61,767 nt of DNA from positions 1 through 61,767 of IMG/VR virus record IMGVR_UViG_3300046532_001253, one strand, 5' to 3'. Positions 1-52,173 of the stretch are shown here, one piece after another. The notes below the pieces were generated by a model. It saw nothing but the letters and a program-made list of their open reading frames with translations. It ran no database searches and was not told where the DNA came from. Source of the DNA: a virus (taxonomy: Duplodnaviria > Caudoviricetes). Made by a program: the position numbers and the translations under genes. Every line of letters starts with the position of its first letter. Position 1 is the first letter of the stretch.

Positions 1-1161
1 TGGAGCAAAAGGTCTAAATTTTTGTCTACGTTTAATTTCGTTTACTTGATCTTTTATATTAGTCCCTCGTGGATCTGCTAGTAAACTTCTATTGCCTAGT
101 GCTCTAGGGCCAAACTCTGCACGACCACTAGCAACACCTACAATCTTGTTTTCTAATAGCTCATCAATGATATCATTAACTGGATACTCACCGCTAATAT
201 TGTATCCTAAAAATGGGCCTTGCCAGTTTAACTTTTTACCATATGAAAGTGCCGCGGCACCTAAACTACTACCAGCATCCCCCGGGTTAGGCATAATCCA
301 AATATTATCAAAGCCATCAATTTTACTATTAGCAACACAGTTAAGAGCAACGCCTCCCATTAACACTAGATTTTTACTGTAGAAACTATGCCTTGCTCTA
401 TTACATAAACGAGTTACTAGGTGTTCGGTAATAGCTTGTACACTAGCCGCAATATCAATATCTAATGCACCTACTAGGTAATCTTCATCAATCCCAGCAT
501 GGCAGTTTTGTTTAAAAGTAAATTCTCTTGTATTCTGTATAAAGTCGTTATAAATTCTGTCAAAGTGTTTGTTCTCTCCCCAGGCCGCCATTCCCATAAA
601 GATATATTCTTCATCCATTGGTTTAAGTCCAACGTGTTTAGTCATTGCACTATAAAATAATCCTAAACTATGTGGATACTTCTGTCTCCAGATAAGTTTG
701 TATTGACTTCTGCCATCAAGTAGTGTTATAGCTCGCCAGATACTTGCTGTAGTAAATTCACCAATGGCATCAATAACAACTACGGTTGCTTGATCAAACG
801 GACTAGTTGAAAACCCTGCGGCGGCATGACTTAAATGGTGATCGTATTTTTTAACTGGAATCCTACAAGACAGTGGAATACCTTGTGCTTTTAAAATACT
901 CCAAGCATTTATTTTATTCCATTCAATTTTTTGTCCTGCATATGCTTGTCTAAGTTGTTTTTTAACTGGATTTTCGTAATACGCAACTTCCTTAACTTCA
1001 TCAAAATCAATTTCATGCAGTAACTCACGACATAAATCTTTATCGTTCTTATTTCTACTATAACGTTCACTATGACTAGCAAACTTAATGTTACCAACTT
1101 CGTCAACTAACGTTACCGCCGCATCATGAAATCCTGCACTCACACCTAGAATTGTTTTCAT
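1..1161 (-). CDS. Carbamoyltransferase, NodU/CmcH family (runs off the left edge; missing from the ORF track)
   Basis: Manual translation from ATG at 1161 gives MKTILGVSAGFHDAAVTLV...SHSERYSRNKND. The frame also contains HHLSHAAAGFSTS, EYILMGMAAWG, GRAEFGPRALGNRSLLADPR and IKRRQKFRPFAP, which are hallmark family motifs. Confidence 0.93.
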   Translation of the reverse strand, partial: MKTILGVSAGFHDAAVTLVDEVGNIKFASHSERYSRNKNDKDLCRELLHEIDFDEVKEVAYYENPVKKQLRQAYAGQKIEWNKINAWSILKAQGIPLSCRIPVKKYDHHLSHAAAGFSTSPFDQATVVVIDAIGEFTTASIWRAITLLDGRSQYKLIWRQKYPHSLGLFYSAMTKHVGLKPMDEEYIFMGMAAWGENKHFDRIYNDFIQNTREFTFKQNCHAGIDEDYLVGALDIDIAASVQAITEHLVTRLCNRARHSFYSKNLVLMGGVALNCVANSKIDGFDNIWIMPNPGDAGSSLGAAALSYGKKLNWQGPFLGYNISGEYPVNDIIDELLENKIVGVASGRAEFGPRALGNRSLLADPRGTNIKDQVNEIKRRQKFRPFAP

Positions 1162-1404
1162 TTAGCTTTGTCCTATCCAATTATAAACGCCGGCTAAGGC
1201 CGCAATAAGGTAACATAGTTCCATTAGGCATCTAGGTTTATCTCTATCTAAATAAGCAAAATATGCCCACGCTACACAAGTTACACTACTAAGTGCCCAT
1301 CCTATCCATTGTAGTGCTATTACTCCACTAGCAAGAAAAAACAAACAACTAATAGCTCCAATGAATGCAAGCCATTTAGCGGTTGTTAATGAAATTCGAA
1401 ACAT
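1162..1404 (-). CDS. Small membrane protein (~3 TM helices)
   Basis: 80 aa, three hydrophobic segments; its stop codon abuts the carbamoyltransferase ATG. Confidence 0.7.
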   Translation of the reverse strand: MFRISLTTAKWLAFIGAISCLFFLASGVIALQWIGWALSSVTCVAWAYFAYLDRDKPRCLMELCYLIAALAGVYNWIGQS

Positions 1405-2071
1405 GCTCTTTGATTACCTTTGCTATACGTGTGTGTCCAAATTCCAACGGATGTCCTCTAGGACCTTTAACACAATTTCCTTGCCACTCTAATATACCAT
1501 CTATAGGCCATCCAACGAACCGTTCAATATCAATTGCATTAAACTGATTTTTAAGAAACTCTCTATATTCATTGTAGTAACCTTGCAGGCCAGCAACATT
1601 ATACATAAAGTATTCTTGGTCTCTATTTTTTAAAAAGTCTTGTAGTGCTATTATTTGGTTAAACTGTTTGCGAAATCCCCAAGAGGTTTCATAACTGTAC
1701 TTATAGTACTCTTGAACCCACGCAGGTTCTTTTCTAGGTCGGTTAATTAGTCCAGGTTTATGTATTAAACAAGTAACAGGCTCAGTATGAGGTTTTAAAT
1801 TAGTGGGTACAAAATTAGGATTATTGTGTATTGCCTCAAATCGATTCTCAGCAGGCCACGACACTAATACCAGATCAAATTTCTGTCCGCTAATTAATGT
1901 TTCAATTACTTGCCTAAAGACGTAATCGGAACTTGCTCCCGACATGCCTAGGTTAACTACTTCGTTAAATTGTAAATCATTTTTTAATAAGTAAGGATAC
2001 GCACTAACTTTTCTGTCGTCAAGTTCTTCACCAAAAGTAAAGCTATCGCCAACTGTTAATAACCTACGCAT
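1376..2071 (-). CDS. SGNH/GDSL-like hydrolase or acyltransferase
   Basis: N-terminal VGDSFTFG (block I), NLGMSGAS (block II) and C-terminal GHPLEFGH (block V). Confidence 0.75.
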   Translation of the reverse strand: MRRLLTVGDSFTFGEELDDRKVSAYPYLLKNDLQFNEVVNLGMSGASSDYVFRQVIETLISGQKFDLVLVSWPAENRFEAIHNNPNFVPTNLKPHTEPVTCLIHKPGLINRPRKEPAWVQEYYKYSYETSWGFRKQFNQIIALQDFLKNRDQEYFMYNVAGLQGYYNEYREFLKNQFNAIDIERFVGWPIDGILEWQGNCVKGPRGHPLEFGHTRIAKVIKEHVSNFINNR

Positions 2072-2175
2072 TATTTGTATATAAACGGATCTCGTTTACG
2101 TAACTCTTTTAATTTTTTACGATATGAAATCTCAAGTTTTACTCTATTAATTATATTTTTAACCCATTGAATCAT
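2071..2175 (-). CDS. 34-aa basic micro-protein MIQWVKNIINRVKLEISYRKKLKELRKRDPFIYK (not in ORF track)
   Basis: AGGAG 7 nt upstream of the ATG; the TAA overlaps the next ATG (TAATG); fills the gap between two genes. Confidence 0.75.
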   Translation of the reverse strand: MIQWVKNIINRVKLEISYRKKLKELRKRDPFIYK

Positions 2176-3031
2176 TGAATTTCTCCTGGAGTAACTCTGC
2201 GGCGGCCGCGTGGGCCTCTTCGAGTGGATGCGTTGTTCCTACTTTATATTTATTTTCTACAGCCCATTGATAAAATCCTCTTGGATTGGATGTCTCGTGT
2301 TCGTTATCTCCCTTAGGGAACCACCACCACGCACCAAAGTCTATACTGTTATATAAACCTAGTATAGTATAATCAATCTTAATGTCGTGTTCACTAATAG
2401 CAGGTTCGTCAAAGCCATCCGGCATGTTGTTTTTTTTGCCATTAGTTCCAGCAGATATTGTCCAATTATCAAGTATACAATTATCTGCTCCTGTAAACAA
2501 GTAAGGAATATTATGTACTTTTAAATAGTTCTGTAACATGACTATTTCTTTGAGTGTATTATACATTTCCCAATATTCATCTATTGCAATATTTTTATAA
2601 AACATTTTTGCAAACTTCTCTACTCCAGTAACTCGGTCTAGTTCCTGTCGTTTAAGATGATATTCAAGAATACTGTCATCCGGATTGTGGAACGAACTTT
2701 GAATATCATCAGTGGTCTGCAGATTCCAGGCACTAAAGTCGCACCAAGGAGTCTTTTTATTCCTTGTATTGTATGCAAATCTAAATTCATAGCGAGACGG
2801 AAAAGTCCATTGCACTAAAACAAACTCCGGTTTAAATTCTTCACAACCAGCGATAGTAGTACGACTTATTGCTGTATTACTAGCACCTGGGTTTGCTATA
2901 CAAATATATTCTTTGCTACTTTTCTTGCTTAACAGAGCAGGATATGTAGTTTGACTATTATGTTTCCCGCCATAAGTATCTTTCAATTCACTACCGTAAA
3001 TGAAACTGCACCCATTTGCAAGAACTGTCAT
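2159..3031 (-). CDS. SGNH-like protein with Cys-Ser variant motif (ANGCSF)
   Basis: ANGCSFIYG, IANPGASN and THPLEEAH motifs. Start refined to ATG 3031, which makes an ATGA overlap with the upstream micro-ORF. Confidence 0.7.
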   Translation of the reverse strand: MTVLANGCSFIYGSELKDTYGGKHNSQTTYPALLSKKSSKEYICIANPGASNTAISRTTIAGCEEFKPEFVLVQWTFPSRYEFRFAYNTRNKKTPWCDFSAWNLQTTDDIQSSFHNPDDSILEYHLKRQELDRVTGVEKFAKMFYKNIAIDEYWEMYNTLKEIVMLQNYLKVHNIPYLFTGADNCILDNWTISAGTNGKKNNMPDGFDEPAISEHDIKIDYTILGLYNSIDFGAWWWFPKGDNEHETSNPRGFYQWAVENKYKVGTTHPLEEAHAAAAELLQEKFNDSMG

Positions 3032-3120
3032 GATACCGTGACCATCCAAGGTTCACCAAATACAATAAGGTGAATAGTGTTGACAACTATTGCCCCAACT
3101 AACAATTCCAAATAACCCAT
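3028..3120 (-). CDS. 30-aa hydrophobic micro-protein MGYLELLVGAIVVNTIHLIVFGEPWMVTVS (not in ORF track)
   Basis: AAGGA upstream of ATG 3120; its TGA overlaps the next gene's ATG (ATGA); one predicted TM helix. Confidence 0.55.
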   Translation of the reverse strand: MGYLELLVGAIVVNTIHLIVFGEPWMVTVS

Positions 3121-3124
3121 AATA

Positions 3125-4198
3125 TTATTCCTTACTACTGTGATCGTAACCAGCTTTTAATTTATCAATTTGTATTGCATAATAATCCTTATCATACCAA
3201 CAATAATCAAAATTGCATGCGGCTTCTCGTGTTTCAATTCTTATAATGTCTAAATGTTCGCCGATGATCTGCCAAACTGTTTCAGGGTGGTCTGTACCAA
3301 AACTACCTACTAAATCAACTTGTCCTACGGAATGATATCCGTAGTTGTATTGAGGATCAGTATGTTTAAATCCTTGACGTTCTAGCCAAATTGCATATTC
3401 ATCCATACGTTGTTTATGCCACGGGTAATCACCAGTATAGGTAATGTCACGTGACCATTCAATATCAAATTCGCCGCTATAGTATCGCAAGTGTGTAATC
3501 TCTTCGCACATTGCTTCTGTTAAGTCTGGAGCGCCTTCATCGACAAACACTTCGTATAATGTTTTTCCTACTTGAGTCCAGTGTTGGTAGACAGTACCAA
3601 AGGTACGATCATATCTTTCCTTATTGAATTCCCTTTTATGTTCGGTGGGGTATTCAAATCGAGGAGCGTTTAAAAACGTTGTGATCTGAGACGGTCGCAT
3701 CCACTGCGGCGCCTCGATTTGTTTCTTCTGGCTCAGCATTAATGATTCTGCTTCATGACATAAATTGTTTAACTGCCTAATAGCAAATTTAGTTTCGTAA
3801 TTTGCTTTCTTATACCAGTCACTCAATCCCCATGCACTACCTTGTAGTACTTCAAAATGATTATGCAACCTGTTCATAATATCTTGATTTGGGTTCATGC
3901 CATCTCTGAGTGTTTTTGGTGTAAATATTTCTCGTATCGTATACTCCTTATTAAAGAAATTATTAATGGTATCTTTAGCCCATTGTAGTTCTTTACATAT
4001 AAAGTCAATATCTCTAGTAGTGTCTGGAAAACCTAAGAACAAAAAATTCTTTTCTAAGTATGCGTTATTTAAGAGCAAGCCGTTTAACGCACCTAACCAG
4101 CTTTGTCCCATTGTAGTTTTCTCAACATCAATATGAAAGTCAACTGTTTTATTTTTTAAAACTGGATTTCTTAATACTACTTTAACTTCATGTGTCAT
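3125..4198 (-). CDS. Hypothetical protein in the radical SAM operon
   Basis: Long ORF; start refined to ATG 4198 (GGGAG RBS, ATGA overlap with the upstream stop). No recognised motif. Confidence 0.75.
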   Translation of the reverse strand: MTHEVKVVLRNPVLKNKTVDFHIDVEKTTMGQSWLGALNGLLLNNAYLEKNFLFLGFPDTTRDIDFICKELQWAKDTINNFFNKEYTIREIFTPKTLRDGMNPNQDIMNRLHNHFEVLQGSAWGLSDWYKKANYETKFAIRQLNNLCHEAESLMLSQKKQIEAPQWMRPSQITTFLNAPRFEYPTEHKREFNKERYDRTFGTVYQHWTQVGKTLYEVFVDEGAPDLTEAMCEEITHLRYYSGEFDIEWSRDITYTGDYPWHKQRMDEYAIWLERQGFKHTDPQYNYGYHSVGQVDLVGSFGTDHPETVWQIIGEHLDIIRIETREAACNFDYCWYDKDYYAIQIDKLKAGYDHSSKE

Positions 4199-5493
4199 AT
4201 CTTCTCCCACCAATCTAATACGTCAGGTCGAGTGGATAAGATGTCCTTCATCGTCAGCGACTGAGTTCTAATTTGTTCTAATTTTAAAATACGTTCTTTA
4301 CCTTTACGAAGCCCTGCTTCGTATTGGTCTGGCCATTGCTCAGCGAATGTAGGTCTATCCTTTAACTGTACCAGTACATCATTCATTGCTCCTGTGCTAG
4401 ACTTACTTAATTCGTCTAGCCACGGATGTAATAGTTCACGTGGTAATGCTAAAGGAGATAATATAATGTCAGGACTAAAACTAAAGACTACTTTAGCAAG
4501 TACACCAACACCTAATCTTTCTGCGAGTTCTTGGATCGGTTCGACTTCAAAGAGTCCCGGTAAGGTAAGAGTGAAGTCAATACGAACTTGGCGCGGGTGG
4601 TTGCTGATCTCAATTCCTTTATTGAAGTTTTCAAGCCACTTGTTAAAATCAAGACCTGTTCGAATATACTCTCCAATTCGTCCCGTTCCGTCGATGCTTG
4701 CACATATTTGCCAATCACGTAGCCTAGACAAAATGTCAGTATACAGATTAGTGCCACCATAATCAATGCGACTAAGATTAGTGTTGTATCTTGCGTAAAC
4801 ATTTGGACCATCTCCTAGTTCTATAATGCGTTTCATATACCTCCAATGCTGTTCATACATTAAAGGTTCTCCGCCGACCCAGTACACCTCTTCTACCCGA
4901 TGTTCCTCAACTGCGTCTGAAAATTCTTTTTCAATTTGTGTGGACTGAAAGTCCTCAATTTGTTTTTTAATAGCAGGTTTCATCCAATTGTTCTTTGGAT
5001 CATCCCAGTTAATCATATTATATTTTCTTTGCTCAGCTTCCCAGCTTGATGAAAGCATGTCGCCGCACATACGACATTTAAAGTTGCATAGGTTTGAGAA
5101 TCTGTAATCCCAACTTACAGGTTTTAACGAAGTAGTGCCGTTTGAATCAGTGTTATCCCATATTGACTCATATTTATGACCAAACAATTGATTAAAATAA
5201 CTTCTATATACATCAGTGTTTAATAACTTACTAGTACACACGTCACACTCACTAAGCTCTTCACCTGCCATCATCCGACGTCGAACACTTTTCATATGTT
5301 CGCTATTCCAGTGTTCATCTAATGTTATTGGCGTATATGTTCCTGTGCCAGATTTAGTATCAATATATTGCTCAAAATTTTGTGCAGGCTCACGACTAGC
5401 ACAACACAAACGTCTTTCAGTTTGTGGACTTAAATACGTATGAGTCCACGGTGCCATACACAAATTTTCAGGTTTTTTATCTGGTTTTATCAT
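4195..5493 (-). CDS. Radical SAM protein with N-terminal SPASM/twitch domain
   Basis: CNFKCRMC (CX3CX2C), GGEP, YNTN; N-terminal CMAPW...LCC...ECDVC. Confidence 0.92.
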   Translation of the reverse strand: MIKPDKKPENLCMAPWTHTYLSPQTERRLCCASREPAQNFEQYIDTKSGTGTYTPITLDEHWNSEHMKSVRRRMMAGEELSECDVCTSKLLNTDVYRSYFNQLFGHKYESIWDNTDSNGTTSLKPVSWDYRFSNLCNFKCRMCGDMLSSSWEAEQRKYNMINWDDPKNNWMKPAIKKQIEDFQSTQIEKEFSDAVEEHRVEEVYWVGGEPLMYEQHWRYMKRIIELGDGPNVYARYNTNLSRIDYGGTNLYTDILSRLRDWQICASIDGTGRIGEYIRTGLDFNKWLENFNKGIEISNHPRQVRIDFTLTLPGLFEVEPIQELAERLGVGVLAKVVFSFSPDIILSPLALPRELLHPWLDELSKSSTGAMNDVLVQLKDRPTFAEQWPDQYEAGLRKGKERILKLEQIRTQSLTMKDILSTRPDVLDWWEKI

Positions 5494-5494
5494 A

Positions 5495-6001
5495 TTAAAA
5501 ATTTACATATAAAGATTTTCGAATAACATTGTCGGGAACCTTACCTTTCATGCCGTGTTGTATTGTGTGCGAATTTAATAACATTAGTCCGGTATTTACT
5601 TCATAGTCAACTTCGTACTTGATATCATTTTCGTACCAGTAAGTACCCATTGATTCACTGTTACTTTCTTCTCCTAAGTATAACATAATAATATTACGAA
5701 CACTATCAGGATCATCATGATGCATTGCGTTTTCATACCCAGCATAATCAAACCATATTTCAACAGCTTGCACCTTTTGTTTGTCGATGTCGAGGCTAGA
5801 AAATCTACCTGCTATTTCATTGCGTACAATGTCACGATCAGGCTCTAACCACCACGACTCTCTGTAGCCTCCAAGATGCCATGCTTCAGTAATAGGGTTA
5901 AATTGTGTTGTATGATTAAACAACTTGTTTTTAACACCATTGGGGATATTGTGTTTTAACTTGTATCCGTTTGCGGATATTTGTTGTACTTCACGTATCA
6001 C
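5495..6001 (-). CDS. 2OG-Fe(II) oxygenase-like protein
   Basis: HxD (MHHDD), distal His (IQHG) and RxS (RKSL) in a ~170-aa beta-rich protein. Confidence 0.7.
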   Translation of the reverse strand: MIREVQQISANGYKLKHNIPNGVKNKLFNHTTQFNPITEAWHLGGYRESWWLEPDRDIVRNEIAGRFSSLDIDKQKVQAVEIWFDYAGYENAMHHDDPDSVRNIIMLYLGEESNSESMGTYWYENDIKYEVDYEVNTGLMLLNSHTIQHGMKGKVPDNVIRKSLYVNF

Positions 6002-9877: not shown

Positions 9878-10961
9878 AGTGTTTCTCCATTTCAGATATA
9901 TAGTTTACTATCTTTGTGCCGCGATGTCTATCTCTAATGGTAATCATATCTAAGAATTCTTTCCAGTTTTCTTCATTAGAGTTATCCAGTGTATTGATAA
10001 TTCCTTCTAAACCATTTTGTGCTTCGTAATCAACAGCACGAAGTCTGTCTTGTGCAAGTTGAGCTAATTCCTTTGGCAAGCACACAGGCGCTAGGTAATG
10101 AGGCTTTGTTAATATATCAAACTGCACAAAAAGCTCTTCCTGTTTAGCCCACTCTAATAATCTATCAATGTATAATACATTTAAATTTTGCACGACTGTG
10201 TTTACAAAAATATTAGCATCAGGTATTTGACGCATCAACTCTATATTCTTAGTTATAATATTCCATTTGCTTGGATATCTTATGTAATGGTTAAGTTCTG
10301 CATATCCGTCAATACTTAAACACATCTTAATATCGTGTGCTGACAATACATCAACCCAACTTTGATCAAATTTAGTTCCGTTAGTTGCAATCATTATTTC
10401 TTTGCGTTGTGTTAATGATGAAAGAATATCACGAACCCAAGGCAACATAAACGGTTCGCCTCCCCTTAGGATAAAGCTATCACTGTGTTCCATTATTTCA
10501 AGTATTTTGTAATTGTCTTTTTCATTCCAATTGTATTTTTTTTGATCCCATACCTTGCCAAACAGTTTGTTTTCTTCAACTAAAAATTGGCTACTAGACT
10601 GCGGGTTACACATCAAGCATTTCAAGTTACATACATTTGATAACTGTATTTCCCAATCTAATGGTTGTTCTGTTTGTTCTGTTATGTCACTCCAACGTTC
10701 ATTGCTGTACTGCCGAAAACTTTTTGATCCTTGTTCTTCTTGTTTATAGCAACGAACACATTCATCACTATGTTCATTGTTCTTGATACGCTTTCTTAGA
10801 TCATTGAGATAATTGCTATTCCACCATTCGTCAACAGAGTGCGTTTTCATATTAAAATCTGTTGTTACAAAACTACGACAACAAGGCATAAAACGTCCTT
10901 GGGTGTCTACCAGACTATGCATAAACGGACGCACACAAAATTTATCGTTATCTTTGAGCAT
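9870..10961 (-). CDS. Radical SAM protein with N-terminal SPASM/twitch domain
   Basis: CNLKCLMC, RGGEP, ATNG; N-terminal CVRPF...MPCC...CVRC. Confidence 0.92.
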   Translation of the reverse strand: MLKDNDKFCVRPFMHSLVDTQGRFMPCCRSFVTTDFNMKTHSVDEWWNSNYLNDLRKRIKNNEHSDECVRCYKQEEQGSKSFRQYSNERWSDITEQTEQPLDWEIQLSNVCNLKCLMCNPQSSSQFLVEENKLFGKVWDQKKYNWNEKDNYKILEIMEHSDSFILRGGEPFMLPWVRDILSSLTQRKEIMIATNGTKFDQSWVDVLSAHDIKMCLSIDGYAELNHYIRYPSKWNIITKNIELMRQIPDANIFVNTVVQNLNVLYIDRLLEWAKQEELFVQFDILTKPHYLAPVCLPKELAQLAQDRLRAVDYEAQNGLEGIINTLDNSNEENWKEFLDMITIRDRHRGTKIVNYISEMEKHFA

Positions 10962-12354
10962 AATATCTACCTTGTTTCCAAAACTCTTCCATTTCTGGAA
11001 ATGTCTTTAAGAAATCTGTGCCTCTACGTTTATCATGTTCAGTAAAAAACCTATAAAAGTCTGCTCTATTTTTCTGTAAGTATTCTGGTGATAATTCTGA
11101 TCCTTTACGCATCCAAGTAATATCTCTACGCATGCGTTGTACTTCGTAATCTTTAAATCCATGAAATGGATCATCTTTAGTTTCTAAATTCTGTTCCATC
11201 CAGTCAGCAACATCTGTTAATTTATCAGCATAAGGCCAAGGAAGTATCTGCAAACTCTGCCAGGCAGGTTGTCGTAGTAAAGGAGTATCAAACCATACAC
11301 GTTGATATGTTGTACTAAATGATTTACGTAAATCAAGTATCCATTCTAGTTGCTTCCTAATACCAGATACACTTAAATTATTCATTGTAATAATAAATGT
11401 TAAGCTATTACGTTCCGGAACTTCAGTTAGGTACCTATGAACATTGTTTGCCATGCGAGGCCAACTAAGTCCGTGTCTAATGTATTCAGCATGAGCAGGA
11501 ATGCCGGTATCTAAACTAACATATTGCATAAAATGCTCAATTTGAGACTTGCATAATTTCTTTACGTAACCTATATATTTTTCAAACAGTTTATCTTCTA
11601 CACTAAAGTTACTAGTTACATTTAAGTGTAACTCAGGATTTGGCAATGCTAATACATAATCAAACACACGATAGGTATTATTATCCATTAATGGCTCGCC
11701 TCCGGTCATTCGAAAATGCTTTAGGTGTGGATATAATGAGGGCCACCATTCCCAAAACGCATCTACGTATGGATTTTCTTCTCTGTGCGGAATTGGTCTA
11801 TTACGACCAGTAAAATGCTCAGGTGCATTATGCGGAGTACTAGTAGGATATGCTCCGGCCTTTTTAATCTCTTTCATCCAGGTAGTGCTAAACTGCGGAC
11901 TACAATATGAACAAGCTAAGTTACACGCATTGTTAAAATTAACCTCAACATAACTAGGCTTCCAATCTTCGTCGCCTGAGCTATTCTTAATTGCTTCGTA
12001 ATCACTAGCCGCCCAAGGTTCGCCGCTTCGGTAATGTCTATCACTTAGGTTACCCGAATCTTCGATGTTCCAACAATACTGACATTCTGATGGTCGCTCA
12101 CCTTTGAGCATTATTTTACGTTGCTCTTTTTTATGCTCTGTGTTATGTAATGCATCAGGATTAATCTTTACTGCATCGGCATCAATCTTATGCAATGGAG
12201 GATGGTAACAACTGTTGTTTAGACCAGTAGGCAAATGAAAACTTACTTGTTTCCATTTAGCCAGACACAATCCTTTACCAAGGTTGTCTTTCATAAATTC
12301 TGCACTAGCCATAAACTTACTTTTATTGCCTACGGACTCATCACCTTTATTCAT
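10948..12354 (-). CDS. Radical SAM protein with His-substituted twitch domain
   Basis: CNLACSYC, TGGEP; N-terminal CLAKW...SCYHP...CQYCW; clear paralog of 8522-9877. Confidence 0.92.
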   Translation of the reverse strand: MNKGDESVGNKSKFMASAEFMKDNLGKGLCLAKWKQVSFHLPTGLNNSCYHPPLHKIDADAVKINPDALHNTEHKKEQRKIMLKGERPSECQYCWNIEDSGNLSDRHYRSGEPWAASDYEAIKNSSGDEDWKPSYVEVNFNNACNLACSYCSPQFSTTWMKEIKKAGAYPTSTPHNAPEHFTGRNRPIPHREENPYVDAFWEWWPSLYPHLKHFRMTGGEPLMDNNTYRVFDYVLALPNPELHLNVTSNFSVEDKLFEKYIGYVKKLCKSQIEHFMQYVSLDTGIPAHAEYIRHGLSWPRMANNVHRYLTEVPERNSLTFIITMNNLSVSGIRKQLEWILDLRKSFSTTYQRVWFDTPLLRQPAWQSLQILPWPYADKLTDVADWMEQNLETKDDPFHGFKDYEVQRMRRDITWMRKGSELSPEYLQKNRADFYRFFTEHDKRRGTDFLKTFPEMEEFWKQGRYYAQR

Positions 12355-12637
12355 AGTTAATCATTCCAATCGCTACAAGATATCCTAATATATTAACACA
12401 TGCAAAGTAGATTGTCAAGAGAAAAGGCCAAACTAATTGTCTACGTTTATATGCTACAATAGCTAAAACACTACCAATAAAAAACCCAGGATATACTAGT
12501 GTCATATCTGGGTTGTTAGCAGTAACCGCAAGTATTAGACTTGCTCCAACAGTAAATACAAAACTAAGCATCTCATAATAAAATGCTGTTTTATCACTGC
12601 GATAACTATTAATCCAAAATTCTTTTACTTTATTCAT
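12347..12637 (-). CDS. Small membrane protein (~3 TM helices)
   Basis: Hydrophobic ~96-aa ORF; start refined to ATG 12637, which overlaps the upstream TGA. Confidence 0.75.
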   Translation of the reverse strand: MNKVKEFWINSYRSDKTAFYYEMLSFVFTVGASLILAVTANNPDMTLVYPGFFIGSVLAIVAYKRRQLVWPFLLTIYFACVNILGYLVAIGMINYE

Positions 12638-12936
12638 CACCATCCCATTATCATCTTTGTTTCTTCAGAAACGCTGTCCATAGTAAACGGAGGATCAAAT
12701 GTAGTAACTACTTCTACGTTGAGAACTCCAGGTGCATATCCTGCTTTCTTAATATCGTCTACAATTTGATCCGCAAACGGACAAAATGCACTTGTTAATG
12801 TATGTGTAATTTCTACCCACTGATCTGCTTTATTAATCTTAATATCATATATCAATCCAAGATCGTATATATTAATGCTTATTTCAGGGTCAAAAACTTC
12901 ACGTAAATTTGCTATAATCTGCTCTTTGTCTATCAT
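12637..12936 (-). CDS. MIP18/SufT/PaaD (DUF59) Fe-S cluster assembly protein
   Basis: LREVFDPEISINIYDLGLIY, TLTSAFCP and FDPPFT signatures; start refined to ATG 12936. Confidence 0.9.
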   Translation of the reverse strand: MIDKEQIIANLREVFDPEISINIYDLGLIYDIKINKADQWVEITHTLTSAFCPFADQIVDDIKKAGYAPGVLNVEVVTTFDPPFTMDSVSEETKMIMGW

Positions 12937-12937
12937 A

Positions 12938-13870
12938 CTACCATCCTTCAATTCGACGAATAACGTCAATCTCTTTTGTCATCATATCTAAATTGTTATG
13001 ACCCGTTTCGTAATGATACTTAAAAAATTGGCTTGTTGATGCATCTAATTCAACAATGTTTAATGCTAATCTGTTATTAAGCATTTCAGTTACTTGTTCC
13101 ATACTATTATGTCTACCAACGCTAGTAGTCTCTAAGTATTCAGCATAGACTTCTGCAAGTTTATCAAAATCTTGTACCTGTGTAAAATCCCAGTCTGTTA
13201 ACATTGTTAGATAGGTTCCATATCTAGCACCGTTAATTGCTTCTTCTCCGTGTTCTACATCACGTCCTATAGTTTGCCAAATCTGCAAGTGGTCGAGGTT
13301 ACGTTTCTTAGCATTATCATCGAACTCTTGCAAACTTGGCTTGCGTCCACGATCTAAGCACATTTTAACACCTTCTCGGAACCCTGCCCGCCAGGCATGA
13401 AATGGGCTACCGTTAGGATATGTAGTGCTGTAGCAGTTGTGCATAGGGTAATAAGTTTCCTCGAAACAGAATTCTACGGCTGTTTCGTGACTCCCGTCAC
13501 TTGCTTCGTGGGTACGCATATTGTTAACAAATCCTTTACTCCATACACTCATACCACCATTACCGTACATCAGTCCGTTAATGTGATTACGTGCTTTCCA
13601 TCTGAATGCACAATCGTTATTAGGAGTTTCAATTTGTAAATTAAAAAAGTCTGCATCTGGAATATTGTCGCCGTCGATTAATACAAAAAAATTAGTATCA
13701 CTTGTTTCAGCCGCGGCCTTATGTGCGGCATCACTGCCCTTTATTCCGTCAACACGTTTAGCCCATGGAACAATATTTAGAATCTTAATCCAAAACTCTT
13801 CCTTTTGCGGTTCGTCATAGCTTAGATAGATACAATCTAAATCTGCTATATCAGTTATACTTAAATCCAT
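12938..13870 (-). CDS. Putative GT-A fold glycosyltransferase
   Basis: FVLIDGDN DxD motif following AHKAAA; GMSVW strand. Confidence 0.6.
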   Translation of the reverse strand: MDLSITDIADLDCIYLSYDEPQKEEFWIKILNIVPWAKRVDGIKGSDAAHKAAAETSDTNFFVLIDGDNIPDADFFNLQIETPNNDCAFRWKARNHINGLMYGNGGMSVWSKGFVNNMRTHEASDGSHETAVEFCFEETYYPMHNCYSTTYPNGSPFHAWRAGFREGVKMCLDRGRKPSLQEFDDNAKKRNLDHLQIWQTIGRDVEHGEEAINGARYGTYLTMLTDWDFTQVQDFDKLAEVYAEYLETTSVGRHNSMEQVTEMLNNRLALNIVELDASTSQFFKYHYETGHNNLDMMTKEIDVIRRIEGW

Positions 13871-14144
13871 AATATTGACCTTCTCCAGCGTCGGTTAAAA
13901 TTCCTGCATGATTTTTAGCAGACCTATACTTACTAACTTCTTTTTTTTCTAATAGAAATTTATTAGTGTTAGTATCAATGCGAGTTAACTTACCGTCAAT
14001 TACTCGCATACTTGAATAATTTGGTTTGTTATAGAGTGCTTTACTAATCCGAATATACCGACCAGGTAACTCTTCGTTAACTGACATACGTGTGGGTACG
14101 CCTGTTTCATCATAGTATAATCGATATTCAAAGTTGGTTTTCAT
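13851..14144 (-). CDS. Hypothetical protein
   Basis: 97-aa ORF overlapping both neighbours in the operon. Confidence 0.7.
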   Translation of the reverse strand: MKTNFEYRLYYDETGVPTRMSVNEELPGRYIRISKALYNKPNYSSMRVIDGKLTRIDTNTNKFLLEKKEVSKYRSAKNHAGILTDAGEGQYYGFKYN

Positions 14145-14970
14145 ATTGATTAATTAAATCCTTTACTATAAAGTTCTTGTCATGATAATGAACTGGATAA
14201 AGTTGCAGTACGTTATTAATACGCATCTCAGCTAAATCATTTTCAACATGTACTGAATCAAATACCTTAACAGTTTCTGCCCATCCTTGAATACCAGGTT
14301 TCATATGTGCAAAACGAAAGAAATCTAAACTAGGAATATAAGGTTCTTGATCAACCATTGTTGATACTATACCATATACAACATCTGTTGTTGGGTGCTC
14401 GTCTCTAACATTAGTTAATCCAAAGTCACGTATACTATCCCAGTTTTTATAAATCTCTTTAGCTAAAGTAAAAAACTCTGAGGCTTCTTTGCTATAACGA
14501 AAATACATCATACCGTTATAAACATCTGGCATGTTATTATAATCAAATAATTTACGATAATTACGGTTAGTACTGTGTCTCTGTTGGTAATCAACTACTC
14601 CATAACTTAATACTACATTCCGCAATCTAAGTGCTTGCCACCAATGAGATATATCTCTAGTAAACAATAAATCAGATTCAAGTTTAATGGTCTCTTTAAA
14701 AGGTGTTAGCCAGAAAATTTGCCACTCGTTGGAGAGTTTCCAATTAGCATCTTTTGCATTATCTTGTTTTAAGGTAATAACGTAGTCGAACGCACGGCGT
14801 TGAGTGTCTGTTATTTGAGACTGTGTAAGCTCATCCACTATTACAGCATATAGGCTGTTAGGTTGTGTTACCTTTATATTTAGCGCCTGAAGGTATGCCA
14901 GCTCTAAATAGTTTACATCATTGGTATTCTGTGCTATTGTAAGGAAACCTTTGTCAGCTTTATGTTGCAT
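14128..14970 (-). CDS. Putative glycosyltransferase (GT8-like, ExD variant)
   Basis: TPFKETIKLESDLL, YNGMMYF, TTDV and a C-terminal HYH. Confidence 0.65.
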   Translation of the reverse strand: MQHKADKGFLTIAQNTNDVNYLELAYLQALNIKVTQPNSLYAVIVDELTQSQITDTQRRAFDYVITLKQDNAKDANWKLSNEWQIFWLTPFKETIKLESDLLFTRDISHWWQALRLRNVVLSYGVVDYQQRHSTNRNYRKLFDYNNMPDVYNGMMYFRYSKEASEFFTLAKEIYKNWDSIRDFGLTNVRDEHPTTDVVYGIVSTMVDQEPYIPSLDFFRFAHMKPGIQGWAETVKVFDSVHVENDLAEMRINNVLQLYPVHYHDKNFIVKDLINQYENQL

Positions 14971-15706
14971 TGATTATCCTTTCAAACTGCTCAGACTGTA
15001 AATAGAGCTTGTCATGGAAGTGTATAGATGTATATGGTAACACGTATGCTCCATTATCTGTAACTACTTTAATCCAATCATCTATGATAATTTCATTAAC
15101 TTTACCTTGTATTGTTAATAACGGCCACGGAATCTTTGTAGCGTCAGACTCTACATAACCGTTAACCAATCTATCAGCAATAGTAAATGCAACATCATTG
15201 CGAAAGTTTCCCATCTGTATCCGGTAGAGTTCTCTATAGTAAGGATAATTGTCTTGCACCATTTTAGCAAAGGTAAACAAATCTTTTGATTTCTGTGTTT
15301 TATTAAATGCAATTACTGTAGCCCACAACATTGGGCTAATTGCAACTTCTCCTAATGTATCAATAGCATTAGTATTAACATAGACATTAGTTTTCGCTAT
15401 GCTATAATCTGTTACAGTATCTAGTACTTTAAGGAGATTATCATCAAATATTAAATAGTCTCCGTCTAACACTAGTGTTTGGTCATATGGAGATAAGTCG
15501 TATGCCTCACACCTTCCGGCGTTTTGCCATTCAACTACTTTACCGTCAAGATATCGTTTATTATTAGATTTACTACCACTAACTATAGTAGTAGGTAATC
15601 CAAGATATCTTTTAATTAGTTTAGCATTAATATTTGCAATTTTAACATAGTCAATTTCTTTTGTATTAGTTGCAAATATCAATACACCTCTAGACTTTTC
15701 TGACAC
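14960..15706 (-). CDS. Putative glycosyltransferase (GT8-like)
   Basis: LSPYDQTLVLDGDYL (DxD), FRNDVAF and a C-terminal IHFHDK. Confidence 0.7.
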   Translation of the reverse strand: MSEKSRGVLIFATNTKEIDYVKIANINAKLIKRYLGLPTTIVSGSKSNNKRYLDGKVVEWQNAGRCEAYDLSPYDQTLVLDGDYLIFDDNLLKVLDTVTDYSIAKTNVYVNTNAIDTLGEVAISPMLWATVIAFNKTQKSKDLFTFAKMVQDNYPYYRELYRIQMGNFRNDVAFTIADRLVNGYVESDATKIPWPLLTIQGKVNEIIIDDWIKVVTDNGAYVLPYTSIHFHDKLYLQSEQFERIINAT

Positions 15707-16013
15707 TTTTAAGTTCCTGATATTGTGTATGCCAAGTATTCATTACCGCTTGGTAACGTTCTTTAGCTAATAATACTAGTTCACTACGTTTAATTGGAAC
15801 AGGATTATTATATGTATCTTCAAGAAACATATCTTCGGTATGCCAGCTTTCTAAAAAAGCAATCAAAGTAGGAGTAACATAAAACAATCCACTATTGTAA
15901 GTTACATGTAACTCAGCCTGGATTGATTCACGTAATGCTTTCTTATTAGTCTGAAACTTGGTAGATGCTTTAACTCTATCAACTAAGTTCTGGTTCACGT
16001 TTTGCTTCAACAT
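15690..16013 (-). CDS. Hypothetical protein
   Basis: ~105-aa ORF coupled to both neighbours; exact start uncertain (possibly GTG near 15998). Confidence 0.7.
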   Translation of the reverse strand: MLKQNVNQNLVDRVKASTKFQTNKKALRESIQAELHVTYNSGLFYVTPTLIAFLESWHTEDMFLEDTYNNPVPIKRSELVLLAKERYQAVMNTWHTQYQELKSVRKV

Positions 16014-16275
16014 TTATTGTTTTCGATTCTATTGCATTATTAATAAATTTAACGGCGTCATCTACGTCATTAAAGGTCGCGGCTTCGTGGTCTTCGATTT
16101 CAATTTCGAATTCTTCTTCAAATGCCATTGCTAATTCAATATTGTCTAGGCTGTCTGCGCCAAGGTCGTCTACGAAACTTGAGTCAGTATCAACAGCCGT
16201 GGGCTCAACACCTAGGTGTACTTCTAAAATATTTTTCACTCGAGTCAGAGTGTCTTGGTAACTCGGTTTGACCAT
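15979..16275 (-). CDS. acpP: Acyl carrier protein
   Basis: FVDDLGADSLDNIELAMAFEEEFEIEI contains the phosphopantetheine Ser; acidic; AGGAG RBS. Confidence 0.93.
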   Translation of the reverse strand: MVKPSYQDTLTRVKNILEVHLGVEPTAVDTDSSFVDDLGADSLDNIELAMAFEEEFEIEIEDHEAATFNDVDDAVKFINNAIESKTINVEAKREPELS

Positions 16276-16306
16276 CTATATCTACTCCTGTATAATGATT
16301 ACTAGT

Positions 16307-16335
16307 AGTATATAACAAAAAACCCACTCTGTCAA
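16307..16335 (-). promoter_or_regulatory. Sigma70-type promoter for the ACP/radical SAM operon
   Basis: Minus strand reads TTGACA-17 nt-TATACT, with the -10 box ~30 nt upstream of the ACP ATG. Confidence 0.85.
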
Positions 16336-16345
16336 GTGGGTTTTT
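16317..16345 (-). terminator. Intrinsic terminator ending the structural operon (probably bidirectional)
   Basis: AAAAACCCACT-ctgtca-AGTGGGTTTTT perfect inverted repeat with a U-tract on both strands, ~30 nt after the stop at 16378. Confidence 0.85.
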
Positions 16346-16377
16346 CATTTATGGTTAAATTTGTTTTAAATTAAGTA

Positions 16378-17301: not shown

Positions 17302-17320
17302 GTTATTTTACCCTTGTTTA

Positions 17321-24825: not shown

Positions 24826-24832
24826 TATTTAT
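24826..24832 (-). promoter_or_regulatory. T4-type late promoter box (ATAAATA)
   Basis: Immediately at the stop of the 4481-aa gene and upstream of ATG 24790. Confidence 0.55.
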
Positions 24833-52158: not shown

Positions 52159-52173
52159 GAAGGATGCTATAAT
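52145..52173 (+). promoter_or_regulatory. Sigma70-type extended -10 promoter for gp46
   Basis: TTGCTT-17 nt-TATAAT with TG at the extended position; ATG follows 6 nt after the -10 box. Confidence 0.7.

Follow-up and report, generated by a model that had tools for sequence, protein, structure and literature searches.

A candidate glycan-building and radical-tailoring gene cluster beside the tail-fibre genes of a marine T4-related jumbo phage

In marine T4-like phages, GT8 genes and radical-SAM cassettes have been noted in the tail-fibre region (PMC7029224), and T4-like genomes rich in radical SAM enzymes (rSAMs) and carrying paaD are also in print (PMC5332604); in the available text of these sources such cassettes are noted but never characterised. 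For the cultured soil Ralstonia jumbo phage RsoM2USA, the available text reports that ORF356, 359 and 361 were detected in virions by mass spectrometry (PMC8504454). Here we describe a cluster of this general kind in a fragment of a marine T4-related jumbo phage; the whole stretch of 61,767 nucleotides that was analysed is referred to as the window.

ORF calling on the minus strand from 16275 to 1 gave 20 tightly packed, co-directional ORFs of at least 80 aa (Table 1), rather than the approximately 22 genes counted in an earlier note on this DNA. Consistent with that note, stop and start codons mostly overlap or abut: with first-start ORF calls the genes overlap at 16 of 19 junctions and abut at one more, the gap is 0 or 1 nt at two, and the only real gaps are of 75 and 87 nt. 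Also as the note had it, the cluster lies next to tail-fibre genes, being directly downstream of ORFs of which several match tail-fibre PHROGs. In related loci t1–t3 always precede the cluster. Note that we call t1 fibre-like from its position and composition. The strong sigma70 promoter claimed for the cluster fared less well. TTGACA-17-TATACT is the top promoter-like site of the region (11/12), but the number of such sites (68) equals that in shuffled sequence (68.2), and the -35 hexamer falls within the loop of a terminator-like hairpin located 3' of the fibre-like gene. At the same junction in 12 relatives read by eye, hairpins recur and a -10-like hexamer is present in about 10, with no recurrence of the -35 hexamer. 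The hairpin and promoter-like element between t1 and the cluster argue against treating the cluster as a mere extension of the fibre transcription unit. In metatranscriptomes, matches of at least 95% to cluster genes came from short contigs in 4 runs, which belong to 4 studies; none of these contigs bridges two cluster genes, and DNA may be present in RNA libraries.

Table 1. Features of the cluster and of the adjoining region, in window positions.
Feature	Position	Strand	Description
g20	1..1161	-	NodU/CmcH-type carbamoyltransferase, core; cut by window edge at residue 387
g19	1162..1404	-	Small hydrophobic protein, 80 aa; seen in this window only
g18	1376..2071	-	SGNH-like / DUF6071-like, 231 aa
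g17	2159..3049	-	SGNH-like; DUF6071 only at E 0.042
g16	3125..4213	-	362 aa, core; predicted cyclophilin-like barrel with helical insertion
g15	4195..5493	-	N-twitch rSAM, 432 aa, core; NF033640 298.6 bits; most conserved (67-86% identity)
g14	5495..6001	-	Small 2OG-Fe(II)-oxygenase-like, 168 aa, variable
g13	5991..7211	-	N-twitch rSAM, 406 aa, core; NF033640 345.4 bits
g12	7198..8535	-	N-twitch rSAM, 445 aa, core; NF033640 400.2 bits
g11	8522..9877	-	N-twitch rSAM, 451 aa, core; NF033640 305.9 bits; 35% identity to g09
g10	9870..10961	-	N-twitch rSAM, 363 aa, variable; NF033640 277.5 bits
g09	10948..12354	-	N-twitch rSAM, 468 aa, core; NF033640 319.6 bits; orthologs 47-90% identical
g08	12347..12643	-	Small hydrophobic protein, 98 aa; outside the core, seen at one other locus
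g07	12637..12969	-	DUF59 / SufT-PaaD-like Fe-S assembly factor, variable
g06	12938..13870	-	GT-A fold (residues 4-153), helical C-terminal half; core, very conserved
g05	13851..14144	-	97 aa, mostly conserved
g04	14128..14970	-	GT8-like GT-A candidate, 280 aa, core; E98-x-D100 motif
g03	14960..15706	-	GT8-like GT-A candidate, 248 aa, core; invariant D81 and D83 (DxD)
g02	15690..16013	-	107 aa, core; orthologs 23-71% identical
g01	15979..16275	-	ACP, 98 aa, DSL phosphopantetheine site; PF00550 E 1.8e-10
Hairpin and promoter-like site	16307..16345	-	Terminator-like hairpin with overlapping sigma70-like site (16335-16307), 3' of t1; then AGGAG and ACP start codon
t1	16378-17301	-	Upstream fibre-like gene; no family match
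t2	17321-18865	-	Match to tail-fibre PHROGs
t3	18935-20458	-	Match to tail-fibre PHROGs
ORF	22312-24126		Matches tail-fibre PHROGs

The six rSAMs named in the earlier note were all recovered: each matches the NCBIfam family NF033640, which has an N-terminal twitch domain, at 277–400 bits against a cut-off of 170, and the CxxxCxxC motif and four N-terminal cysteines are kept in all six. Pairwise identity among the six is 21–35% whereas each has orthologs at approximately 47–90%, which argues that they are old, non-redundant paralogs. Clear orthologs of g10 occur in about 10 of 32 related viral loci. For g12, 6811 homologs were found at E ≤ 1e-10 among 8000 candidates scored, and its twitch part aligns with the auxiliary-cluster domain of BtrN (E 3e-4), a carbohydrate-type rSAM. 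NF033640 is uncharacterised, with no member of known substrate, so we infer a sugar substrate from context only. The protein g16 is a probable partner of these enzymes. Among its 685 representative relatives, one (the metagenomic protein P0382) is fused to a g12-type N-twitch rSAM; the AF2 model (pLDDT 80.6) gave borderline scores against cyclophilins (VIA-wide Z 8.0–8.7) and no Foldseek match.

The claim that the cluster encodes glycosyltransferases (GTs) held at the level of profile and fold, but g03, g04 and g06 have no family match in Pfam, NCBIfam or PHROGs. Over some 110 residues the g04 profile matches glycogenin (GT8; E 1e-5), and the closest ESM Atlas clusters that carry a name are GT8/Nucleotid_trans (0.96). 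Taken alone, g03 has no direct PDB or Pfam match, and comparison with the g04 family by hhalign (99.1%) indicates that the two are paralogs. In g06, for which at least 8000 metagenomic homologs were found, D66 and D68 are invariant (IDGDN); its AF2 model (pLDDT 81) has a best Foldseek E of 6.6e-4, with the top rows all GT-A folds or nucleotidyltransferases, and a VIA Z of 9.3 (rmsd 3.9, 141 aligned), little more than the 7–8 that this tool typically gives by chance. These likenesses tentatively suggest that the three are GTs.

Among the remaining genes, g20 was assigned as a NodU/CmcH-type carbamoyltransferase, as claimed, with PF02543 (150 bits, E 1.5e-43) and PF16861 (73.6 bits, E 1.8e-20) both above curated cut-offs; the full ortholog in relatives has 494 aa and both domains, with a 139-aa ORF and a peptide deformylase next downstream in the same orientation. 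The DUF59 assignment of g07 also stood (PF01883, 49.1 bits, cut-off 23.5), TIGR02945 being matched at 92.4 bits, under its cut-off of 143.4; the gene is present in 8 of 32 loci. An ACP is indeed encoded by g01 (PF00550, 41.4 bits, cut-off 20.8; TIGR00517, 82.2 bits, cut-off 70.45), but it is accessory and lies outside the conserved core. The 2OG oxygenase and the SGNH proteins were each upheld in part. ESM Atlas likeness is the sole support for g14 (features 0.95, TM 0.70–0.75 to PF13640 clusters), which has no Pfam or PDB match; H94, D97 and H149 are invariant among 4 sequences. The SGNH-like paralogs g17 and g18 align over a conserved GDS block and a GHPLExxH block (ExxH), but Pfam scores are below cut-offs (for g18, DUF6071 25.4 bits, cut-off 27, and Lipase_GDSL_2 23.2 bits, cut-off 32.9); the true start of g17 is probably the ATG 6 codons in. 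Catalytic motifs are retained in the rSAMs, in g03 and g06 (DxD), and in g17 and g18. No family match to g02 was found with Pfam, NCBIfam or further profile searches.

We compared the cluster with 32 viral loci centred on g12. Gene order proved well conserved across divergent relatives: g11-g12-g13-g15-g16 occur in order in 23 of the 32, and the order from t1 to g20 (fibre genes, g02–g06, five rSAMs, g16 and the carbamoyltransferase) is kept in all 18 loci that span the whole stretch, while g07, g10 and g14 vary. The clusters of relatives hold further genes: a cytidylyltransferase, a cupin and a PNP_UDP_1 nucleosidase-like gene in L023; UDP-glucose dehydrogenase, a sugar C-methyltransferase, a sulfotransferase and a B12-rSAM in L039; an APS kinase in L013; and, close to the cluster in L003, a DegT aminotransferase. 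Around bacterial N-twitch rSAMs, GT, sugar-nucleotide or polysaccharide-export genes lie within 5 kb in 9 of 22 loci examined, a raw count with no background control.

Because enzyme classes are mostly present, core order is conserved, catalytic motifs are kept and sugar-nucleotide genes occur in relatives, the self-contained pathway proposed earlier remains, as one of glycan tailoring, the best reading, except that the ACP, DUF59 protein, g10 and 2OG-like protein fall outside the core. From these data we infer one pathway with its individual chemistries and acceptor. The GT8-like g03 and g04 and the GT-A-fold g06 would transfer sugars from nucleotide sugars. The five core rSAMs (g09, g11, g12, g13 and g15) and the variable g10, each with a SAM cluster and a second, four-Cys cluster and partnered by g16, could each carry out a different radical step on sugars, for example oxidation, epimerisation, deoxygenation or C-C/C-methyl chemistry. 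Hydroxylation by g14, addition or removal of O-acyl groups by g17 and g18, and O-carbamoylation by g20 may be further steps, with Fe-S cluster loading aided by g07 and, in the closest relatives only, an acyl group perhaps supplied by g01.

That this is a glycoconjugate pathway, whatever the acceptor, we consider rather probable. Our fuller reading, that the conserved module assembles a short glycan and afterwards modifies it by radical chemistry, on a cytoplasm-reachable acceptor, namely the virion, is the one we prefer to the rivals weighed here, though we hold it tentatively, at less than an even chance. More tentative again is the preferred acceptor itself, the fibre proteins of the phage, whose genes lie immediately upstream and which are slightly favoured over host LPS; if so, these fibre proteins would carry a decorated glycan (virion glycosylation). 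Note that adjacency to fibre genes is weak evidence on the target, since T4-like structural gene order is conserved anyway. The same chemistry could instead act on the host envelope, altering its LPS core or a different surface glycan during a long infection and so blocking superinfection or keeping progeny from adsorbing to debris. GT8 is a family of LPS-core transferases, bacterial N-twitch rSAMs occur beside ABC-2 exporters, PMT_2 and GT2/GT4 genes (L067 and L083), the hairpin and promoter-like element set the cluster apart from the fibre gene, and the available text of the pelagimyophage paper reads GT8 genes of the tail-fibre hypervariable region as altering the host O-chain (PMC7029224). 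We nonetheless judge an envelope target rather unlikely: family searches of the cluster found no initiating phosphoglycosyl transferase, flippase, polymerase, ligase or exporter, neither of the two small membrane proteins is conserved among loci, and the place beside virion genes is fixed even in the distant RsoM2USA. The lack of any match in profile searches of the cluster to a lipid-carrier transferase, flippase or ligase was counted in favour of glycan tailoring on a virion acceptor. We doubt that the product is an ACP-dependent acylated small molecule or glycolipid, secondary-metabolite-like, with no macromolecule decorated. Carbamoyltransferases, SGNH proteins and 2OG enzymes are typical natural-product tailoring enzymes, an ACP heads the cluster in the window, and in two Paenibacillus genomes (L080, L090) an N-twitch rSAM has an ACP on one side and KR, two KS, AMP-ligase, GT2, thioesterase, FabA-like and PPTase genes on the other. 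However, by tblastn the ACP is present in only 5 of 32 loci, all of one near-identical phage, in other relatives the interval from t1 to g02 is too short to hold it, and family searches found no KS, AT, adenylation or thioesterase gene in the cluster.

Equally doubtful, or slightly more so, is the idea that there is no single pathway and that at least two independent modules (a fibre-tied GT set, and an array of rSAMs together with g16 and the carbamoyltransferase) are simply neighbours in a plastic region. N-twitch rSAM arrays occur without g03, g04 and g06 in 8 of 32 viral loci (L027, L029–L031, L034–L037) and in a second array in the window, between gp47-like and gp46-like genes, so the two sets may be separable modules; L013 has eight extra ORFs of 174–348 aa between g06 and g09, and T4-like phages gather accessory genes near fibres, according to the available text of PMC7029224. 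Set against this, both marine phages and the soil phage RsoM2USA keep one or more g09/g11-type rSAMs next to the GT set, and stop and start codons overlap through g06-g07-g08-g09. A role of the rSAMs in maturing peptides or proteins, either RiPP-like or directly on the fibre proteins, with the GTs secondary, is improbable. Characterised SPASM/twitch rSAMs mostly modify peptides, g02 and g05 are small conserved ORFs within the cluster, and some bacterial homologs have PqqD or a C39-ABC exporter nearby (L091 and L088); but the many NCBIfam peptide-maturase models that weakly match g10 and g13 fall far below their cut-offs whereas that of NF033640 is exceeded, PqqD/RRE, protease and exporter have no family match in the phage cluster, g02 is conserved over its full length with no Cys-rich, Ser-rich or hypervariable core, and t1 has no cysteine. 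Hypermodified DNA, for instance a glycosylated and decorated hydroxymethyl-pyrimidine, had been listed as a possible target and is highly improbable, even though available text describes DNA-glycosylating phage GTs as well known (PMC12619734) and has rSAMs taking part in thymidine hypermodification (PMC8989533). Each of 5 relatives has 0 or 1 PF00303 gene, of canonical ThyA strength (350–363 bits), and the gene is absent from the two most complete (91% and 99%); these counts, with no hydroxymethylase paralog seen, argue against DNA glycosylation. Moreover, ThyA adjoins DHFR in one relative (G001), and no DNA-binding or nucleotide-kinase family was matched in the cluster.

How, then, does a pathway of glycan tailoring on the virion compare with described systems? 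Consistent with the earlier note, literature searches found no characterised phage pathway of like composition, although cassettes of this sort had been noted before, as the available text of PMC7029224 and PMC5332604 records. RsoM2USA carries a reduced form of the module, with two GT8-like genes, one GT-A gene and one N-twitch rSAM: g03-g04-x-g06 and a single g09/g11-type rSAM (35% identity to g09) directly follow virion genes, with an NDP-sugar epimerase/dehydratase among these genes. To what was already in print, our analysis adds this reduced form, the core order kept in 18 of 18 loci, the accessory nature of the ACP, the absence of a hydroxymethylase paralog in relatives and the fusion of a g16 relative to an N-twitch rSAM.

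All six of the radical SAM (rSAM) genes that the earlier note had placed in the minus-strand cluster do belong to it, and all are members of one family. In particular, the products of g09 to g13 and g15 (cluster genes are numbered g01 to g20 from 16275 down to 1) each exceed the 170-bit cut-off of NF033640, the NCBIfam model of proteins with an auxiliary-cluster domain before the SAM domain (N-twitch rSAMs), with scores in the range 277-400 (g09 319.6, g10 277.5, g11 305.9, g12 400.2, g13 345.4 and g15 298.6 bits). Elsewhere in the window are two more copies, at 325 and 226.7 bits. Each of the eight copies has one CxxxCxxC motif and four upstream cysteines, and in the cluster rSAMs the Pfam matches to PF13186 SPASM lie N-terminal to those to PF04055 Radical_SAM; the cluster enzymes are predicted to bind both a SAM cluster and an auxiliary cluster. 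The paralogs are only 21-35% identical to one another. Among solved structures, the g12 profile comes closest to viperin for the core (E 1.9e-5) and to BtrN for the auxiliary-cluster domain (E 3e-4), the BtrN twitch domain aligning to profile positions 17-90. Against cultured phages, megablast of window positions 1-16400 gave no match and tblastn with g12 gave five records, all at 24% identity or less; a wider search with g12 returned at least 6811 proteins at E <= 1e-10, on contigs of up to ~360 kb. No characterised NF033640 member was found in the open-access full-text literature, and a PHROGs search with the cluster proteins matched only "radical SAM", ACP and carbamoyltransferase.

Scanning viral contigs with g12 yielded 32 loci, some of which are near-identical copies (L008, L009, L010, L014 and L018, which are one phage; L016 and L017; L029-L031; L034-L037). 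Orthologs of g11, g12, g13, g15 and g16 occur in this order in 23 of the 32 loci. Moreover, the fibre-like gene t1, which lies just upstream of the cluster, and g02, g03, g04, g06, g09, g11, g12, g13, g15, g16 and g20 keep the window's order in all 18 loci that span the whole stretch. This core order holds down to ~47% identity for g12 and ~30% for g02-g04, and the rSAMs are far better conserved than the glycosyltransferase (GT)-like genes (g15, for example, at 67-86% where g03 drops to 32%). Other parts vary: the DUF59 gene (g07) is found in 8 loci, g10 in ~10 and g14 in 7, and two small membrane proteins are likewise variable. Extra genes in the clusters of relatives point to sugar chemistry. 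The 316-kb relative L023 has a cytidylyltransferase, a cupin and a PNP_UDP_1 nucleosidase-like gene (12480-14222) that might clear the rSAM by-product 5'-deoxyadenosine; in L039 these are a UDP-glucose dehydrogenase, a sugar C-methyltransferase, a sulfotransferase and a B12-rSAM; the extra gene in L013 encodes an APS kinase; and L003 has a DegT aminotransferase gene close by.

The view that the cluster encodes GT-A glycosyltransferases finds partial support in the fold of g06, in DxD motifs and in a glycogenin-like profile for g04, and none in Pfam, in which g03 and g04 had no match even at E 5. The g04 profile matches glycogenin (GT8) at E 1e-5 over only ~110 N-terminal residues, including the DxD region, where D100 is invariant and E98 nearly so and where both align to the DAD motif of glycogenin. 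Its paralog g03 (hhalign 99.1%) has a DxD motif of which D81 and D83 are invariant in 12 sequences. The model of g06 (pLDDT 81) has a GT-A fold at residues 4-153, and Foldseek matched it to GT-A and nucleotidyltransferase chains with probabilities of 0.94-0.99 (best E 6.6e-4); VIA gave an rmsd of 3.9 with 141 aligned and a Z of 9.3, barely over the chance range of the tool. PBCV-1 A64R is among the g06 fold matches, and D66 and D68 of the g06 DGD motif are invariant. A search with g06 returned at least 8000 homologs (8000 of the 8000 scored candidates), nearly all unnamed. Judged from its model, g06 appears to be a GT-A-fold protein, possibly a sugar nucleotidyltransferase instead of a glycosyltransferase. 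(Profile searches against PDB sequences gave nothing significant for g03, g06, g14 or g16.)

The family assignments of the remaining enzymes were confirmed to differing degrees. The ACP (g01) passes both PF00550 (41.4 vs 20.8 bits) and TIGR00517 (82.2 vs 70.45 bits), and its translation carries GADSLD with the conserved DSL serine. The carbamoyltransferase g20 also stands: the cut window copy scores 150 bits to PF02543 and 73.6 bits to PF16861, a full 494-aa ortholog scores 138.3 and 168.8 bits, and g20 falls below the cut-off of the NodU equivalog model (86 vs 1000 bits). DUF59 holds for g07 at the level of PF01883 (49.1 vs 23.5 bits) but not at that of TIGR02945 (92.4 vs 143.4) or SufT (82.4 vs 202.6). 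The SGNH assignment of the paralogs g17 and g18 finds support in their GDS and ExxH blocks, but both remain below Pfam cut-offs (g18, Lipase_GDSL_2 23.2 vs 32.9 and DUF6071 25.4 vs 27; g17, DUF6071 at E 0.042); across 20 sequences G13, S15, G19, E21, H274, L276 and H280 are invariant and E277 nearly so, with the block II and III glycine and asparagine conserved in part only. The likeness of g14 to small phage 2OG-Fe(II) oxygenases was found in the ESM Atlas only (features 0.95, 181 shared; TM 0.70-0.75 to PF13640 clusters; model pLDDT 0.61), there being no Pfam or PDB-profile match; H94, D97 and H149, the first two in HxxD spacing, are invariant in four sequences. The products of g02 and g05 have no family match.

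The conserved gene g16 has a model (pLDDT 80.6) for which a wide structural search returned a run of cyclophilins at a borderline Z of 8.0-8.7, around a helical insertion, and Foldseek returned no match (best E 0.06, TM below 0.2). Its profile finds 685 representative proteins at E <= 0.001. Among the 150 relatives listed, P0382, a metagenomic protein of 754 aa, is g16-like at residues 19-302 and aligns over residues 332-751 with full-length g12 (35% identity, E 3e-91). This natural fusion points to g16 acting together with the rSAMs, with the proviso that it is a single representative and possibly a gene-calling artefact. (In P0312-P0314, P0327, P0331, P0345 and P0348, metagenomic proteins of 712-775 aa, a g16-like domain follows an N-terminal domain of ~390 residues; in P0312, hhalign found no relation between those 390 residues and the g06 and g04 profiles.)

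As to the layout, we count 20 minus-strand ORFs of at least 80 aa from 16275 down to 1 where about 22 genes had been claimed. The tight packing is largely real, as 16 of the 19 junctions overlap (counted from first-start ORF calls) and one more abuts, but there are real gaps of 75 and 87 nt. The last gene, g20, is truncated by the window edge; past it, relatives have a 139-aa ORF and then a peptide deformylase gene, both on the strand of g20. A terminator-like hairpin lies 3' of t1, upstream of the first cluster gene; TTGACA sits within its loop and TATACT 17 nt beyond. This is the best site of the region (11/12), but promoter-like sites are no commoner than in shuffles (68 vs 68.2), and the strong sigma70 promoter of the earlier note is not established, TTGACA or a close variant being present, among 12 relatives, only in the nearest ones. 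By eye, the t1/cluster junction of these 12 has a GC-rich hairpin with a T-run in ~9 and other hairpins in the remainder, and a TAnAnT-type hexamer follows shortly in ~10. With the hairpin after t1 and these recurring junction elements, the cluster seems to form a transcription unit of its own. In the window the octamer of the T4 late promoter, TATAAATA, is depleted (1 occurrence vs ~10 expected), and CATAAATA-like elements precede structural genes instead (upstream of 18935-20458 and 38294-41713), so that the long gp55-like sigma factor of the phage may recognise a displaced motif. By eye, the ACP gene is preceded by an element (TATATACTACTA) that resembles the one (TAAATACTACTA) before the fibre gene at 18935-20458.

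Transcription of the cluster genes is plausible, since short metatranscriptome contigs (~160-940 nt; four runs from four studies) match cluster and fibre genes, mostly at 99% or more, although RNA libraries can hold DNA. No contig from these four runs spans two genes, and 2669-5336 (g15-g17) is without any contig in them; depth is greater over the fibre genes and is unfit for ranking genes. RNA contigs from the library runs X15 and X17 join window position 15069 to 18476 with 31 other letters between and 21 letters on the shorter side, a junction that probably stems from a variant strain or from an artefact of assembly.

The window is the whole IMG/VR record (61,767 bases, 18% estimated completeness), and because contigs related to it are as long as 343.6 kb (99% estimated completeness) we regard it as a jumbo-phage fragment. 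Its structural genes are T4-related, and its 1139-aa baseplate wedge protein shares 36% identity with its counterparts in the jumbo phages Atu_ph07 and GAP32; it also encodes a gp55-like late sigma factor, SbcCD-like gp47/gp46, baseplate hub genes and several fibre genes. At least 75% of the sampled words of the phage sequence are found in each of 14 runs from 12 studies, mostly labelled seawater or marine metagenomes, with three of the samples behind that count perhaps being the record's own source. Three extra rSAM genes (50650-56237, plus strand) are interleaved with the gp47-like and gp46-like genes, and directly past them lies a SegE-like GIY-YIG homing endonuclease gene (PF19835, E 8e-33; 56666-57106, plus strand). 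Between the fibre genes and the baseplate wedge gene is a giant ORF of 4481 aa (24832-38277, minus strand), for which Pfam gives only weak CBM5/12 and FG-GAP repeats; the Ralstonia jumbo phage RsoM2USA has a 2541-aa virion protein at the matching position. In one relative, G001, the locus L119 (172000-192000) has a PTPS/QueD-like protein beside a small rSAM, possibly for 7-deazaguanine chemistry, together with a DctP-type solute-binding protein, a DUF2201 metallopeptidase with an AAA ATPase, and adjacent DHFR and ThyA genes.

Genes of the sigma factor, SbcCD and second rSAM region of the window
Feature	Position	Strand	Remarks
gp55-like sigma factor	48660-49619		319 aa, long
gp47-like SbcCD gene	49637-50653		
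N-twitch rSAM	50650-52158	+	~100-residue N-terminal extension; 36% identity to g13
gp46-like SbcCD gene	52180-53949		
rSAM of a different kind (non-N-twitch)	53936-54952	+	
N-twitch rSAM	54942-56237	+	followed by a 146-aa protein without assignment

In the cultured-phage collection, g06 and g04 match only RsoM2USA (38% and 33% identity). ORF349-354 of that phage (MG752970.1) comprise, in this order, a g03-like gene, a g04-like gene, a 184-aa ORF, a g06-like gene, an N-twitch rSAM gene and a second g06-like gene, so that the GT set and the rSAM follow the order of the window; the rSAM is closest to g09 (35%) and g11 (32%). The difference is that RsoM2USA has one rSAM where the window has five or six, and its 33-kb stretch gave no match to g16, the carbamoyltransferase or the SGNH proteins. 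The module comes directly after virion genes, among them one for an NDP-sugar epimerase/dehydratase (E 1e-52); the products of ORF356, 359 and 361 were detected in virions by mass spectrometry (PMC8504454). In excerpts of that paper, ORF349-354 are annotated as hypothetical and radical SAM is not mentioned. The shared module implies that the GT set and an N-twitch rSAM were already associated before the marine lineage arose, which would later have expanded the rSAM set and gained g16, the SGNH pair and the carbamoyltransferase.

A scan of bacterial genome contigs with an ortholog alignment (that of the eight paralogs being too divergent for the purpose) yielded 79 loci, 29 of them with two or more N-twitch rSAM copies. 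At least six (L042, L043, L044, L068, L092 and L094) carry fibre genes together with g03, g04 and g06, and for that reason are probably jumbo-phage contigs mis-binned as bacterial; their bins are Legionellales, Haliscomenobacter, Verrucomicrobia and Rickettsiales. Neighbours were scanned for 22 loci, and GT, sugar-nucleotide or polysaccharide-export genes lie within ~5 kb in nine of these (raw count; L067, L083, L088, L091, L069, L076, L080, L090 and L106), the remaining context being uninformative. In L067 the N-twitch rSAMs accompany an ABC-2 exporter and PMT_2. In the Saprospiraceae locus L069, three copies are accompanied by DegT, an NDP-sugar epimerase, two PhyH dioxygenases and a UbiA prenyltransferase. 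Arrays in which three to five copies stand in tandem (L047, L048, L053, L056, L060, L063, L111, L069, L073 and L087) are mostly in contigs labelled Bacteriovoracaceae, Halobacteriovorax or Bdellovibrionales.

From what is observed, namely the families or folds, the motifs, the conserved order, the old association of GTs with an rSAM and the g16 fusion, we infer as the best-supported reading a single pathway with a sugar substrate. The three GT-A-fold enzymes g03, g04 and g06 would assemble a short glycan, which would then be tailored by five to six N-twitch rSAMs, non-redundant and acting together with g16; the 2OG-like oxygenase g14, the SGNH-type acyl enzymes g17 and g18 and the O-carbamoyltransferase g20 would tailor it further, with DUF59 (g07) as an optional Fe-S helper, each chemical step being a prediction. 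As acceptor we tentatively favour the phage's own fibres, because the cluster has a fixed place after virion genes in all relatives, RsoM2USA included, and has no match to lipid-carrier, flippase or ligase families. The same lack of matches speaks against the host LPS or another envelope glycan, which we rank closely behind the fibres as a possible but rather unlikely acceptor; in its favour, the LPS core is the typical target of GT8 enzymes, and excerpts of a paper on pelagimyophages read their GT8 genes in that way (PMC7029224). The fuller proposal, in which the five conserved N-twitch rSAMs and g16 serially radical-modify a GT-attached glycan of the tail fibre, is doubtful as a whole.

Four other readings are less probable, here in descending order. 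An ACP-dependent small molecule or glycolipid is unlikely: in the Paenibacillus loci L080 and L090 the rSAM does lie within a cluster of ACP, KS, KR, dehydratase, AMP-ligase, GT2 and PPTase genes, and among the 32 viral loci tblastn matches to the ACP occur in five, all one phage, the relatives having no room for it between t1 and g02. Two independent modules that merely lie side by side are likewise improbable, although they would fit the eight viral loci of another array type with no match to g03, g04 or g06; L039 is intermediate. Peptide or protein maturation is more improbable again. Two bacterial loci have peptide-type neighbours (PqqD in one, a C39-ABC exporter in the other), whereas of the hallmarks of a RiPP cluster (a precursor peptide with a variable core, an RRE/PqqD domain, a protease or exporter) the 20 cluster proteins gave no PqqD, peptidase or ABC match, and g02 is uniformly conserved; a recognition element of a novel type is possible. 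Hypermodified DNA, one of the targets that the earlier note had suggested, is very unlikely. The thymidylate-synthase family includes dCMP and dUMP hydroxymethylases, and in five relatives its genes are a single canonical copy in three (350-363 bits) and absent from the two most complete (91% and 99%); since no hydroxymethyl-pyrimidine route is seen in these five, glycosylated DNA in particular is improbable, and DNA modifications other than glycosylation are possible.

If the phage does make an rSAM-tailored fibre glycan, this would be the first radical-SAM-tailored virion glycan and the first function for NF033640, whose thousands of members occur both in abundant uncultured marine jumbo phages and in Bdellovibrionota, Bacteroidota and other bacteria. 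An outlay of ~16 kb and of five to six Fe-S enzymes sensitive to oxygen, all for one product, suggests that selection rewards it strongly, most likely in adsorption, host range or particle protection, and the module marks a widespread lineage. Once one substrate is solved, thousands of genes in phages and bacteria would gain an annotation, and the one-rSAM module of a cultured phage and the natural g16-rSAM fusion are simple entry points.

Uncharacterised bacterial N-twitch clusters (Saprospiraceae L069; Bacteriovoracaceae L047, L060 and L067; Paenibacillus L080 and L090) share with the window tandem arrays of two to five copies, and the genuinely bacterial loci have no homologs of g03, g04, g06 or g16. 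BtrN, the butirosin 2-deoxy-scyllo-inosamine dehydrogenase, is the founding twitch-domain radical SAM and acts on a carbohydrate-like substrate. The phage enzymes resemble it in having a radical SAM core and a four-cysteine auxiliary domain, which in BtrN aligns to their N-terminal part, but they are only weakly similar to it, have their domains in the opposite order, with the twitch domain N-terminal, and are 100-200 residues longer. Nod-factor tailoring employs the NodF ACP, the GT2 enzyme NodC, the NodU/NolO carbamoyltransferases and the NodL acyltransferase, with which the window would share its ACP, its putative GT-A enzymes and the predicted O-carbamoylation and O-acylation of an oligosaccharide; it differs in that equivalents of NodA, NodB and NodE are absent here, that Nod pathways are not known to have rSAMs and that the window ACP is not conserved. 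Virion glycosylation (the capsid and tail glycans of mycobacteriophages; A64R of the chlorovirus PBCV-1) likewise involves virus-encoded soluble GT-A-fold enzymes near structural genes. For the window phage it is a candidate process. To our knowledge, these virion-glycosylation systems have no rSAM array, carbamoyltransferase or g16.

In agreement with the earlier note, no characterised phage pathway of this composition was found in the open-access full-text literature; excerpts of a "moraphage" paper mention four GT families and not radical SAM (PMC12619734). The closest published parallels, as excerpted, are marine T4-like myophages with uncharacterised GT8 genes and rSAM cassettes in a tail-fibre hypervariable region (PMC7029224) and T4-like environmental genomes with up to 12 rSAM genes plus paaD (PMC5332604). 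Like the window phage, with its GT8-like candidates, these are T4-related marine phages with GT8-type and rSAM genes beside fibres, a DUF59/PaaD-type Fe-S helper and a peptide deformylase nearby. The cassettes of PMC7029224 are hypervariable, whereas the window block is a conserved, ordered core of a jumbo lineage with relatives of up to 343.6 kb. GT8 genes and rSAM cassettes beside fibres are in print already, possibly in closely similar clusters, and what is unusual here is the conserved array of five to six N-twitch rSAMs.
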